Of a stretch of DNA of 64,000 nucleotides, positions 20,651 through 56,684 are shown one piece after another (positions within the stretch are counted from its first letter, which is position 1; the number at the start of each line of letters is the position of its first letter). A program made the translations under genes and the position numbers. This DNA is from Candidatus Saccharimonadales bacterium. Its GTDB lineage: Bacteria; Patescibacteriota; Saccharimonadia; Saccharimonadales; JBBQAJ01. Where the stretch lies: NCBI GenBank assembly GCA_038206875.1, contig JBBRAK010000006.1:253-64252 (forward strand), in the 5' to 3' direction. The notes beneath the pieces are model-generated. The model was not told the origin of the DNA. It ran no database searches and worked only from the letters and a program-made list of their open reading frames with translations.

Positions 20651-20786
20651 CTCAGCCCGGTTGCCTGTGGAAAGGATTTTGCACATCTTTCTACCATGGC
20701 ATCGATTTCTACAGAAGCATCGTTTGTGTCTACAGGAAACCCGTCGGGTGATTGTTTAAGCACTGCTAAGTTATTGGGGGTTAGGG
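20651..20786 (-). pseudogene. displaced fragment paralogous to codons ~406-451 of the 544-aa gene at 22229..23863
   Basis: About 126 of 136 nt are identical to 22512-22647, same orientation, offset 1861 bp. The minus strand reads LTPNNLAVLKQSPDGFPVDTNDASVEIDAMVERCAKSFPQATGLR, then diverges (LRKHSG) and stops. No start codon. It abuts the stop of the 20781..22034 gene in a different frame. Confidence 0.8.
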
Positions 20787-22228: not shown

Positions 22229-23863
22229 TCAAGATGGATTATATTTAGCATCTTGCTCGTTGTGATGCAGTATTTCTCTTATAGCTACGCTATCACCGCC
22301 TGGACCGGATATAACGCAATAAATTACCCTGGTTCTGTAGGATACGTTTCCACTAGATTTTACAGTGACATTTTTGCGTGTTGTAGCATTCCTTAGTGGC
22401 ACCTTCTTTCCGTTGTGCCCAACCAGATTTATAACTTGTCCTTTTAGATTTTTTGTCCCGGGACCAAAAGGATCGTCTAGCACGGCTTTAACTAATGAAC
22501 TTATCGAATCTCTCAGCCCGGTTTCCTGTGGATAGGATTTTGCATATCTTTCTACCATGGCATCAATTTCTTCAGAAGCATCGTTTATATCTACAAGAAA
22601 CCCGTCGGGTGATTGTTTAAGCACTGCTAAGTTATTGGGAGTTAAGGACGTTTCAATATCACTTACTCCTAAAATTTGCCTAAGTGATGGTTTAGCACGT
22701 AAGCGTCTGCCTTTTGCTTTTCCTGAACTCCGTTTTCGTGAGCCTGCCTCTCTCCCAGTTGCATTTCGAGTTTCACCAATTAGAAGATTTAAGCGTTCTT
22801 CGGTCGGTGTGCAGCGGCTTCTAATCACATAGTTTTTTAGAAGTTCTTTAATCGTATTTTGAAGAAAGTCTATACGACCGTTCGCGTATGTCTGGAAGGC
22901 TTCTTTTAATTCCGCCGGCCAAGTAGATTCCAGCGAAGAAATTATTTCTGCTGGATCAACGAAATAGACTGGATCTGTGGTTTCAATAATTTTTGCAATT
23001 AATTTGGTCCACTCTTGAATCTTAGAATCAATGCCTGCTACCTCACCAGAAAGTAAGGCATCCAAGAACTCACCCTGCAGGGTCTCACTTGCAATAGTCC
23101 TTAACTTGTCTAAAGCTTGAGTCAGTACTGAATCTTGATTTTCTTGACCGTTATCTAGTAAATCTTGGGCTAGCATCTGTAGATAAGCTCTGTAATCACC
23201 CTCCTCATCTTCTCGGACTTGCTTAAGCCATGCTACGAAAGATTCGGCTTGTGGTATGCCGGCTTCTACATAGCCAGATGTATGTGCCACAAGTTCCTTG
23301 GTTGCTTTATATATTAGCTCGTAATCTGTAGCAAGTTGTGGAGCAAGGCTAGCAATAACAATAGAACCTTCTTCTAGAAACTCTGCTTCGCCATCCACCT
23401 GGTAGTAGCCAAAAACGTTTTCGATAGCACTATTGACATAAATGCTAAGAACAGCAGTCGATTCTGGCAAACCCTCAAACTCTGAAAGCACAGGACTATT
23501 TGGGACATTTTTGTGCATACCGTGTCTAACAGAGAACGCAATAGCTTCAACGGCAATAGAGAAGAATCTTTCATGTATATTTGCATCATTCTGCCTCCGC
23601 ATTTCACGGTTCGTGCTTCCTCCCGCCGAATCGTTACCACATTTGTCTGACGCCCTAACAACAATATCGATAACATCTGCCAAAACAGCTCTTTTTATCG
23701 CCTCGGTGCGTTGCCAACTTTCATCTATTTCTACCACTACTGGACGAATTTGGTCAGCTATATCCGTAAAATTGCATAACAAATCAAAGTCGGTTTCCGG
23801 ATTTTTGTTTGCTACCGGTATAGAATTTGCAGATGATGCTTCTCCGCCTGTTTCAAAATTCAT
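22229..23863 (-). CDS. orphan 544-aa protein: unknown N-terminal ~380 aa, basic linker, C-terminal RelE/ParE-like toxin-fold signature
   Basis: Continuous ORF. Linker GREAGSRKRSSGKAKGRRLRAKP. The C-terminal ~115 aa read EEIDAMVERYAKSYPQETGLRDSISSLVKAVLDDPFGPGTKNLKG ... SYRTRVIYCVISGPGGDSVAIREILHHNEQDAKY. This matches the helix-helix-beta pattern and the YRxxY...I..I.HH ending of RelE/ParE toxins. Confidence 0.55.
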   Translation of the reverse strand: MNFETGGEASSANSIPVANKNPETDFDLLCNFTDIADQIRPVVVEIDESWQRTEAIKRAVLADVIDIVVRASDKCGNDSAGGSTNREMRRQNDANIHERFFSIAVEAIAFSVRHGMHKNVPNSPVLSEFEGLPESTAVLSIYVNSAIENVFGYYQVDGEAEFLEEGSIVIASLAPQLATDYELIYKATKELVAHTSGYVEAGIPQAESFVAWLKQVREDEEGDYRAYLQMLAQDLLDNGQENQDSVLTQALDKLRTIASETLQGEFLDALLSGEVAGIDSKIQEWTKLIAKIIETTDPVYFVDPAEIISSLESTWPAELKEAFQTYANGRIDFLQNTIKELLKNYVIRSRCTPTEERLNLLIGETRNATGREAGSRKRSSGKAKGRRLRAKPSLRQILGVSDIETSLTPNNLAVLKQSPDGFLVDINDASEEIDAMVERYAKSYPQETGLRDSISSLVKAVLDDPFGPGTKNLKGQVINLVGHNGKKVPLRNATTRKNVTVKSSGNVSYRTRVIYCVISGPGGDSVAIREILHHNEQDAKYNPS

Positions 23864-31252: not shown

Positions 31253-32071
31253 TTGTTTGCAAATGCGATTACAGCTGGAGCCGGATTTTTGTTTGCAAGT
31301 AAAGGTGAAATTGACTATTGGCTACTGCTTGCACTTTTTTTGGGGTCTAGTTTAATTATAGCTTCAGCCTGTGTTTTAAATAATTTTTTGGACCAAGACA
31401 TAGATTCAAAAATGGTTCGCACCAAAAATCGCGCTATGGTAAAAAAATCTATTCCTAATGTTAACGCGGTGATTTTTTCTGCGACGCTGGGGATATTGGG
31501 CCTAGTAACTCTTGTATTTTATACAAACAATCTGGTAGTTTTGCTTGGGATTATTGGGTTCGTTGACTACGTCGTACTATACGGTATGTTTTCCAAGAGA
31601 CTATCTTGGCACGGAACACTGGTCGGAAGTATTTCTGGGGCTGTGCCAATAATATCTGGATATGTTGCTGTGACTGGCCGAATAGATATTGTTTCAATGC
31701 TATTGTTTGTAGTGCTGTTTTTTTGGCAAATGCCAGAGTTTTATTCGATTGCAGTTTATCGAAAAAATGAGTACAAATCCGCAAATATTCCAGTTATTTC
31801 AGTTGTCAAAGGGATACCCTACACCCAAAAACTCATAGTTGTTTATACAATCCTATTTGTAGTAGCTACGCTTTTGATTCCAGTTTTTGGAAAGACGAGT
31901 ATTTTATACGCTTTTGTTATGTCAATTCTCGGACTACGCTGGATAGTGCTTGGCTGGGCATCTTTTAGCTCATCACAAGTAGATGATTGGGCAAAAGCAA
32001 TGTTTCGATTTTCGTTATATATTTTGCTTGTTTTTAGTTTACTGATTTCGGTTGACGCTTGGCTACCATAA
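31253..32071 (+). CDS. cyoE: protoheme IX farnesyltransferase (heme O synthase); true start probably upstream
   Basis: UbiA-family pattern NNFLDQDIDSKMVRTKNRA. The track start is a TTG at 31253. The same frame is open back to 31187 and encodes IKRYFSLTKPGV, the conserved CyoE N-terminal block, with no ATG, GTG or TTG in between. Confidence 0.85.
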   Translation: MFANAITAGAGFLFASKGEIDYWLLLALFLGSSLIIASACVLNNFLDQDIDSKMVRTKNRAMVKKSIPNVNAVIFSATLGILGLVTLVFYTNNLVVLLGIIGFVDYVVLYGMFSKRLSWHGTLVGSISGAVPIISGYVAVTGRIDIVSMLLFVVLFFWQMPEFYSIAVYRKNEYKSANIPVISVVKGIPYTQKLIVVYTILFVVATLLIPVFGKTSILYAFVMSILGLRWIVLGWASFSSSQVDDWAKAMFRFSLYILLVFSLLISVDAWLP

Positions 32072-32074
32072 ATA

Positions 32075-32228
32075 GGTCTTTCGTACATCGGCGTTGATAA
32101 CAGGATGCAGATAGTTGAAGCGAAAACTGTCTAGCTTATGGAGGGGTAACTGTAGCTACATTGAGATGAGATAGACAGTTTGTAGCCAGCTATCTGTGGT
32201 CTGTTGCTACGGTGATGTGCGAAAGTCC
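32075..32228 (+). ncRNA. candidate structured RNA: 154-nt long imperfect hairpin (6S-like architecture, unclassified)
   Basis: Hand-paired stems are 32075-32089 with 32214-32228 (14 of 15 pairs, one G:U), CAGATAG/CTATCTG, and AACTGTCTA/TAGACAGTT, enclosing a 38-nt apex. Three G:U pairs occur on the plus strand and would be A:C on the minus strand. Non-coding spacer between cyoE and a small membrane-protein gene. Confidence 0.45.
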
Positions 32229-32253
32229 TATAATTTAGTGTTATAATCTTGTT

Positions 32254-32514
32254 ATGGTTTTAGCTACACATATCATAATTGCGCTAACAAGTTTGATTTA
32301 TACTACGCTCATATATATTTCACCTTCAAAATCCCGACTGAATATTGCATACACTTTGATGGCCTCAACTCTCTTAAGCGGTACATACTTGGTTGTAAGC
32401 ACTGGATCGCCGTTAATTAGCGCGTGTATTTCTGGACTAGCATATACTTCGGTCGTTTCGATTGGCCTGGTTGCAACGCGCAAAAAGCTAGCTACTGCTT
32501 CTAGCCAACTATAG
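32254..32514 (+). CDS. small hypothetical 3-TM membrane protein
   Basis: 86-aa hydrophobic ORF downstream of the candidate RNA. No motif recognised. Confidence 0.45.
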   Translation: MVLATHIIIALTSLIYTTLIYISPSKSRLNIAYTLMASTLLSGTYLVVSTGSPLISACISGLAYTSVVSIGLVATRKKLATASSQL

Positions 32515-56290: not shown

Positions 56291-56320
56291 CAAAACAACA
56301 AAACGACCTCAATGGGTCGC
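56291..56320 (-). terminator. rho-independent terminator after the duplicated tRNA-Leu 3' end
   Basis: The minus strand reads CGACC-CATTGA-GGTCG followed by TTTTGTTGTTTTG. It begins about 10 nt after the repeat copy at 56331-56351. Confidence 0.6.
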
Positions 56321-56330
56321 TTGGTTGTTT

Positions 56331-56351
56331 TGGTGCGCGAGGTGGGACTTG
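56331..56351 (-). repeat. exact 21-nt copy of the 3' end of tRNA-Leu (T-loop to CCA)
   Basis: TGGTGCGCGAGGTGGGACTTG at 56331-56351 is identical to 56519-56539. It is a direct repeat, 188 bp apart. Confidence 0.9.
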
Positions 56352-56518: not shown

Positions 56519-56606
56519 TGGTGCGCGAGGTGGGACTTGAACCCACAAGGCTTATTCAGCCAACGGATTTTAAGTCCGTCGCGTATACCAATTCCGCCAC
56601 TCGCGC
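56519..56606 (-). tRNA. tRNA-Leu (anticodon TAA), type II, CCA encoded
   Basis: Hand fold: acceptor GCGCGAG/CTCGCGC, anticodon arm ACGGA-CTTAAAA-TCCGT, long variable arm, T arm GTGGG-TTCAAGT-CCCAC, ACCA. Confidence 0.9.
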
Positions 56607-56610
56607 ATCC

Positions 56611-56684
56611 TGGAGGTGCGTACGGGTAATGCTCCCGTCTACTGGGTTTTGCAGACCCATGCCTAACTTCTCGGCCAACGCACC
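56611..56684 (-). tRNA. tRNA-Cys (anticodon GCA) with non-canonical T-loop and D-loop, CCA encoded
   Basis: Hand fold: acceptor GGTGCGT/ACGCACC, D arm GCC(G)-AGAAGTT-(A)GGC, anticodon arm TGGGT-CTGCAAA-ACCCA, T arm ACGGG-AGCATTA-CCCGT, discriminator T, CCA. It lies 4 nt upstream of tRNA-Leu. Confidence 0.75.

Follow-up and report, generated by a model that had tools for sequence, protein, structure and literature searches.

A probable foldback miniature element with IS701-type ends, and with base pairing kept on one strand, downstream of cyoE in a Saccharimonadales genome

The window analysed here is the whole stretch of 64,000 nt (positions 253 to 64,252 of contig JBBRAK010000006.1, assembly GCA_038206875.1), a low-G+C (about 38-40%) segment from Saccharimonadales (Saccharibacteria/TM7). 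Two genes of the plus strand frame the site in question, as given by the initial annotation, a reading of the letters alone: cyoE (31253-32071, +), a heme O synthase of the UbiA family (Pfam UbiA, E 3.5e-49; homologues carry the name heme O synthase or that of protoheme IX farnesyltransferase), and a hydrophobic open reading frame (ORF) of 86 aa (32254-32514, +), which has no Pfam family and for which an exact protein look-up returned no record. The nearest cyoE homologues in genome collections all come from Saccharimonadales/Saccharibacteria metagenome-assembled genomes. The spacer between the two genes is occupied by a long hairpin, which we describe here as a probable MITE (miniature inverted-repeat transposable element) with the terminal inverted repeats of IS701-family insertion sequences (IS).

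The hairpin lies where it was initially placed, at 32075-32228. Folded with RNAfold as plus-strand RNA, this stretch reaches -72.1 kcal/mol, where shuffled versions average -39.8 (z -8.9; none of 200 shuffles was as good); as minus-strand RNA it reaches only -47.1 kcal/mol (z -6.6). Its extent had been understated: when a wider stretch is folded the helix continues to 32072-32231 (ATAGG...CCTAT), 160 nt in all. The plus-strand stem is almost continuous, with 53 Watson-Crick and 8 G:U pairs (about 61 pairs), five 1x1 mismatches (T.T, G.G, T.T, A.G, G.A) and, as the largest interruption below the apex loop, a 2x3 internal loop in both the minimum-free-energy and the centroid structures. The internal loops of 17-18 nt drawn in the initial annotation are mostly closed by wobble pairs. 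The bias towards plus-strand G:U pairing that it described is real, and is found throughout the family described below; there are 8 such pairs rather than 3, and no 1x1 A:C mismatch in the plus-strand fold. The palindrome TGTAGCTACA was found at 32151-32160. No ORF of at least 40 aa is contained in the 160 nt; the sole overlap is with the first 17 nt of an 81-aa antisense ORF (31843-32088). The strand rich in G:U pairs, called the sense strand here, is the plus strand, co-directional with cyoE and with the small ORF.

The complete element is bounded by its terminal repeats: a 5' terminal inverted repeat TAGGTCTTTCGTACATCG (32073-32090, +) pairs with a 3' terminal inverted repeat TGATGTGCGAAAGTCCTA (32213-32230, +). 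The outer limits ATAGG...CCTAT (32072-32231, +) are those at which homology with copies in other contexts ends exactly. The TAA that serves as cyoE stop codon (32069-32071, +) and a second TAA (32231-32233, +) form a putative target-site duplication, the junctions reading TAA-A[TAGG...CCTA]-TAA. Within the arms an asymmetric internal loop has GCGAAA on its 5' side (32120-32125, +), conserved between the hp1 type of the family, to which this element belongs, and the hp2 paralogue described below, and TGTAGC on its 3' side (32181-32186, +). The apex hairpin GTAAC-TGTA-GCTAC (32146-32159, +), which contains the palindrome, is the best-conserved block of the family. A TATAAT can be read where the end of the element meets the duplicated target (32229-32234, +); a consensus promoter scan did not call it as a promoter, and any function for it would be speculative. 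Another TATAAT (32242-32247, +) belongs to the pre-existing spacer outside the element, 6 nt before the ATG of the small ORF.

That the hairpin was inserted into a spacer that already existed is seen by comparison with close relatives. The protein database held three close relatives of the window cyoE, on contigs L063, L064 and L065. The first has the window sequence, and its short-read contig stops at the hairpin apex. In L065 (cyoE 77% identical) a spacer of 21 nt separates cyoE from an 87-aa ORF in the same place as the 86-aa ORF (69% identical); the hairpin is absent and there is a single TAA. Excision of 32072-32231 together with one TAA leaves CCATAATTTAGTGTTATAATCTTGTTATGG in the window, against CCATAAACAAAATGATATAATCTAGTTATGG in L065, and the two spacers align base for base, so that the hairpin is an insertion into a short pre-existing spacer (about 25 nt). 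In L064 (cyoE 79% identical) the 30-nt spacer carries GCGAAAGTCCTAT, exactly the sequence with which the window element ends on its 3' side; what this spacer keeps of the element is the final 13 nt, or 19 of 20 nt when the preceding TGATAT is counted. The entire 86-aa gene is lacking from L064, in which cyoE and a convergent FAD-oxidase gene lie 30 nt apart (L064 4823-4852). A second pair of filled and empty sites is given by contig L085, in which a spacer of 418 nt between a CBS-domain gene and a DsbA-like gene holds two copies, against 71 nt without the element in L172, a relative of L085 (AspRS 82% identical). No comparable hairpin was found downstream of cyoE in 60 more distant relatives by sliding-window folding, and thus the hairpin is not syntenic; BLAST and nhmmer searches of the hairpin against 62 cyoE loci gave no similarity.

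Copies at unrelated loci were found in other Saccharimonadales; the initial annotation had named near-identical copies elsewhere in the genome as the sign of a MITE or REP-type repeat. A metagenome scan with the degenerate arm end GATRTRCGAAAGWCCTAT (an 18-mer terminal-repeat pattern) returned 98 loci, about ten of which are related; the rest are mostly chance matches, many of them coding (the 18-mer reads D-V-R-K-S-Y). Matches in L113 and L166 resemble eukaryote-type repeat DNA and were dismissed. Five of the scan loci hold the whole 160-nt element, as two distinct sequences (87-90% identical) whose homology ends exactly at ATAGG and CCTAT. One of these (L085, L149) lies between the CBS-domain gene, which is divergent, and the DsbA-like gene; the other (L117, L095, L080) follows a gene for a 326-aa membrane protein, TatC-like by eye. 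Contig L085 is placed in Saccharimonadales by named relatives of its AspRS, has 47% G+C and otherwise has no sequence in common with the window. Two nucleotides from its first copy a second 160-nt hairpin, hp2 (L085 8104-8263, minus strand), lies inverted, with about 60% identity.

A covariance model (R1) was built from four copies. It covers the window element over positions 1-160 of 160 with 166 bits on the plus strand, against 67 on the minus strand, and matches hp2 and further members at L064 3094-3256 (163 nt); L064 6562-6636, an oppositely oriented deletion derivative of 75 nt that keeps the same termini; L117 6305-6464; L085 2754-2851, a 98-nt form; and the end of L080, a truncated copy. 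There are thus two copies and a remnant in L064, three copies in L085 and two in L117, a density of 2-3 per 9-14 kb. About forty other Saccharimonadales cyoE loci carry no family member, and the family is therefore regarded as lineage-restricted. All copies begin A-NN-G/C-GACTT-N-CGCA and end in its complement, and their arms pair over the whole length. Among viral contigs the 18-mer gave four chance matches, and an interior 22-mer found nothing. More than 120 matches came from a 14-mer, and none of them fits the covariance model; most are due to chance, the exception being an element with the same ends in L225, described with the IS below. The only public contig identical to the locus (Logan contig L063, SRR19962010) ends at the hairpin apex (L063 2261-2329), which suggests that the element breaks short-read assemblies. 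A 48-aa gene annotated at L064 3151-3297 falls almost wholly inside the 163-nt element, on the antisense strand, and is probably a spurious call.

The termini of the element (TAGGACTTWCGCA...) match the inverted repeats of IS701-family insertion sequences. Three of the scan matches, each to a single arm (L105, L125, L155), directly follow the stop codon of a DDE transposase gene; the NCBIfam model NF049921 of the IS701 family gives 336 bits for the L105 transposase and 314 bits for that of L125. The right ends of all three read as the 3' end of the window element, TGATGTGCGAAAGTCCTA; the 19 nt GTGATGTGCGAAAGTCCTA (window 32212-32230) are identical in L105 and L125, and L155 matches 18 nt (TGATGTG...). 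As an independent check, plasmid transposase homologues were retrieved by protein similarity alone and their flanks were searched de novo for inverted repeats. The IS of L169 (Moraxella) and L171 (Paraburkholderia) have TAGGACTTACGCAAAA at both ends, with 5-bp duplications (GAATA and ACCTC, respectively). This left-end repeat matches the core of the 5' terminal repeat of the window element and the termini of other members, being the terminus of the L064, L080 and hp2 subfamilies (ACTGGACTTACGCAAAA, ACCCGACTTACGCAGAA). The two terminal-repeat subtypes of the hairpin family parallel two subgroups of one IS family. No match to the left IS repeat was seen in L105; that contig may begin inside the element, and the left end was settled by the complete plasmid IS instead. 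Contig L105 also has an 86-nt inverted repeat (L105 1135-1220 and 1372-1457; 88% complementary, arms 151 nt apart) that starts at the IS701-family right end. In the viral contig L225 (IMG/VR 3300027835_000056) a 104-nt element at 2098-2201 has perfect TAGGACTTACGCAAAA ends, with AGAAA duplicated as its 5-bp target; it is situated a short way upstream of a terminator-like hairpin, and covariance model R1 does not match it.

Taken as a whole, the locus is in our judgement most probably explained by a 160-nt non-autonomous MITE of the foldback type, its two halves complementary throughout, with IS701-family terminal inverted repeats and with a putative role of one strand as RNA. Assignment to this class is based on the small size, the lack of coding capacity, the IS-type ends, the pairs of filled and empty sites, the deletion derivatives, and the occurrence of adjacent as well as dispersed copies. 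An IS701-group DDE transposase acting in trans would have cut the element out and pasted it in at the stop codon of cyoE, an A/T-rich target; the TAA would have been duplicated in the process, by which the stop codon would have been retained. Direct repeats flank five of seven copies, namely TAA (window), TAT (L085), TAT (L117), TAG (short copy of L064) and ACT (second copy of L117). A 5-bp duplication like that of the IS was considered and does not fit the Saccharimonadales copies.

Several observations weigh against this explanation. The flanking repeats are 2-4 bp long depending on where the ends are placed and are absent from two of the seven copies, and the related IS make 5 bp. No IS701-family transposase was found by tblastn with three queries in the window or in the Saccharimonadales loci searched, about 0.5 Mb in total. 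A second copy in the 64-kb window was found neither by repeat search, nor by the covariance model with its filters off, nor by the terminal-repeat pattern. Palindromy over the whole length is left unexplained by a simple internal deletion of an IS, and it is unusual for a MITE that conservation is greater in the interior and at the apex than in the arms. As to the RNA role, G:T wobble would equally stabilise a hairpin of single-stranded DNA; the pairing asymmetry set out below is partly inherited from common ancestors and did not arise independently in each copy; and in the short L085 copy (2754-2851) the G:U-rich strand opposes both flanking genes.

The pairing asymmetry is seen in the counts of G:U against A:C, which are 8:0, 8:0, 9:0, 6:0, 7:3, 11:0 and 6:2 in the individual copies. 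Over independent lineages, with the hp1 type counted once, they add up to 38:5, for which a test that assumes no orientation gives p about 3e-6. Most of the mismatches that are left are G.G, G.A and A.G when read on the G:U-rich strand. All of the nine one-sided substitutions among three hp1 copies keep pairing on the plus strand, and 28 of 54 predicted pairs have two-sided changes across subfamilies, in an alignment made from sequence only. In four of the five copies that can be interpreted (the window, both L117 copies and the long L064 copy) the G:U-rich strand is co-directional with an adjacent gene; for the adjacent pair of L085 the orientation relative to genes is uninterpretable.

The apex hairpin, with the consensus GTA(G/T/A)C-YRTA-G(C/A)TAC, is better conserved than the arms or the termini, ten positions being invariant in six copies from four diverged subfamilies. 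It is located at 32146-32159 of the window, L085 8016-8029 and in hp2, L117 8172-8185 and 6378-6391, and at about 3170 of L064. Both copies of a contig have the same apex loop bases (CCATAG in L117, CCGTAG in L085), and their arms are barely alignable; such contig-specific loops hint at concerted evolution or at a genome-specific binding partner. The internal loop GCGAAA/UGUAGC appears by inference to resemble a loop E or bulged-G motif (GAA opposite GUA). As a family-wide feature this motif was rejected, since it occurs in the hp1 and hp2 types only and is absent from the L064 and second L117 subfamilies.

The excess of G:U on one strand, the purine-purine mismatches and the conserved apex indicate that the structure may be under selection on one strand, and point to a possible constraint at the level of RNA such as that of ERIC or Correia elements. 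Because the element lies between two co-directional genes, read-through from cyoE would transcribe it; the plus-strand transcript would fold into an imperfect duplex of about 60 bp, which would be tolerated or favoured. In the most likely reading the predicted RNA would stabilise the 3' ends of the flanking mRNAs or offer RNase III/RNase E a site at which to process them. A processing or stabilising effect on the cyoE transcript is possible as a secondary consequence of the insertion, and the element does not appear to be a free-standing small-RNA gene.

The alternative that survives best is a plain selfish MITE with no RNA role, its wobble excess being due to mutation biased by strand (C-to-T changes of the non-template or the leading strand), to descent from a few master copies, or to selection against perfect DNA palindromes. 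We consider this possible though doubtful. The identity as a MITE is itself well supported; five invariant G:U pairs are common to the three hp1 copies by descent, the GC skew of the element (+0.30) agrees in sign with the skew of the coding strands next to it, and one copy, the short one of L085, faces against both of its neighbour genes. However, 38 G:U against 5 A:C goes beyond even a generous mutational bias of 65:35 (p 5e-4), and the G/C ratio of the neighbouring coding strands is only 1.18. The asymmetry recurs in four or five diverged subfamilies, and in the three whose asymmetric apex loop is informative (hp1, hp2, second L117) its polarity with respect to that loop is the same. The leftover mismatches are mostly of kinds that an RNA helix tolerates, and the apex is conserved beyond the arms, which likewise speaks against the absence of any RNA role. 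The wobble bias had initially been taken to favour an RNA over a MITE; with related copies at unrelated loci of other Saccharimonadales, several per contig, it does not argue against a MITE.

It is rather improbable, in our estimate, that the full-length members form a Saccharibacteria-specific structured RNA module carried on IS701-type ends. In such a module a host factor or an RNase could recognise the invariant apex GUAGC-YRUA-GCUAC, whose loop bases co-vary by genome, the internal loop of loop-E-like form in the hp1 and hp2 types, and the pairing kept on one strand through 28 two-sided pair changes, and the element would spread a portable post-transcriptional control or a unit producing double-stranded RNA in reduced epibiont genomes.

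Very unlikely is an independent structured small-RNA gene, 6S-like or of another rod-shaped regulatory type, situated after cyoE by chance. The plus-strand fold is very stable and strand-specific, and the sequence is 87-90% conserved between organisms that differ in G+C, as such a gene might be; yet the nearest relatives lack it at their orthologous loci, several unrelated loci carry it, with inverted copies next to each other and with deletion derivatives, its termini are of the IS type and direct repeats flank it, and a consensus scan reported neither a promoter upstream of the element nor a terminator at its position. The resemblance to 6S RNA suggested in the initial annotation did not hold: Rfam at the gathering threshold reports four tRNAs only in the window and nothing near the site, and at E<=10 gives just two chance matches (mir-3851 and HOTAIR_2), 6S not among them. 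The 6S RNA (RF00013) has a similar length and a rod-like outline; the window element differs in the lack of a large central bubble and in being neither syntenic nor confined to a single copy.

Two further explanations are barely credible. One is a structure that evolved locally, as a cis-regulatory leader of the gene for the 86-aa membrane protein or to terminate or attenuate cyoE transcription; a leader and a terminator had initially been proposed. It would fit a hairpin between the two genes and on their strand, but L065 has both genes 21 nt apart without it, the same sequence adjoins unrelated genes elsewhere, no U-tract follows the stem (the sequence there is TAATTTAGTGTT), the consensus terminator scan was negative over 32072-32240, and the small gene keeps its own TATAAT outside the element. 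A single-stranded-DNA element (an IS200/IS605-type palindrome, a REP/RAYT unit or an integron attC) would be suited by a strand-specific hairpin with G:T wobble; against it, the termini match the DDE IS701 family and not Y1/HUH, flanking direct repeats are present (IS200/IS605 elements are not known to make any), the attC core sites (RYYYAAC/GTTRRRY) are absent from the ends, which are ATAGG...CCTAT, 160 nt is several times the size of a typical REP unit, and every ORF within about 5 kb (27.4-35.4 kb) is either assigned another function or too short to encode an integrase or a TnpA/RAYT.

The MITE explanation has its closest parallels in elements of other bacteria. Correia elements (NEMIS) of Neisseria, MITEs of about 100-155 bp, are likewise short, non-coding and dispersed between genes, with long inverted repeats, and in both cases the junctions can create promoter-like hexamers. 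They are co-transcribed with their neighbours as long RNA hairpins for which cleavage by RNase III is documented (PMC10969869, PMC2229807, PMC2649163). They differ in their TA duplications, IHF site, other repeats, hundreds of copies per genome and lack of relationship to IS701; the window element forms one helix over its whole length, and its host is a member of the Saccharibacteria. ERIC/IRU (127 bp) and YPAL/RU-2 (168 bp) of enterobacteria are imperfect palindromes of similar size and, as here, are highly conserved across species at differing loci, with filled and empty sites between relatives. These elements are transcribed together with the genes beside them, and their orientation decides their effect on mRNA stability, in Yersinia by exposing an RNase E site (PMC2229807, PMC10969869). 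The sequences of ERIC and YPAL are unrelated and their hosts belong to other phyla; no transposase partner is known for ERIC, whereas the termini of the window element match a defined IS family. For RUP of Streptococcus pneumoniae, whose repeats match those of the autonomous IS630-Spn1 and which prefers a short A/T target (PMC2229807), the same argument for a MITE applies; RUP differs in its link to IS630 rather than IS701, in its length of 107 bp and in not being a full-length hairpin. The IS701-family IS themselves (NF049921 group; ISPlag1-like, ISAba11-related) have the terminal sequence TAGGACTTWCGCA... in common with the element, and differ in being autonomous and 1.1-1.3 kb long, with a DDE transposase of about 340 aa, 5-bp duplications and a non-palindromic interior.

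MITEs that fold as RNA are already well known, and the element is a further example; most noteworthy are the unexplained conservation of its apex and the unusually clean constraint on one strand. In the searchable literature we found no report of MITEs in Saccharibacteria/Patescibacteria or of hairpin MITEs derived from IS701, and neither is mentioned in the review PMC10969869 or in a 2024 survey preprint. A false lead is removed, the hairpin being neither a 6S-like RNA nor a riboswitch; a family of mobile elements is documented in Saccharibacteria, organisms with very small genomes; and the tie to a specific IS group makes mobilisation testable. As a transposon whose structure is conserved on one strand, the family is also a clean natural example. 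If an RNA function lies behind this, the elements would give mobile DNA a way to rewire mRNA stability in the respiratory neighbourhood (cyoABE) of an epibiont. In practice, such hairpins break short-read assemblies and can be mis-annotated as ORFs, as in the 48-aa call of L064.

Some further observations concern the neighbouring genes and the rest of the window. The small gene has a perfect TATAAT exactly 6 nt before its ATG and no visible Shine-Dalgarno sequence (window 32242-32256); the same arrangement, TATAAT-ctagtt-ATG, is kept at the empty site of L065 (4159-4177), where the hairpin is lacking, and suggests a leaderless mRNA. Between the window cyoE and the cyoE genes of Microbacteriaceae (Leucobacter, Mycetocola, Klugiella, Pseudoclavibacter) identity is 49-56%, and these matches are interleaved with those from Saccharibacteria (L013-L058), a pattern compatible with possible gene exchange between epibionts and their actinobacterial hosts. 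A direct repeat of 136 nt (93% identity) is formed by 20651-20786 and 22512-22647; the second copy lies inside a gene of 544 aa (22229-23863, minus strand), and the first, an intergenic fragment after a gene of 417 aa, is apparently a duplicated gene piece. Two adjacent tRNA genes of the minus strand lie at 56522-56606 and 56614-56684, one of them with a long variable arm (85 nt); near this pair is a hairpin (56291-56332) with arms of 18 nt, 89% complementary.

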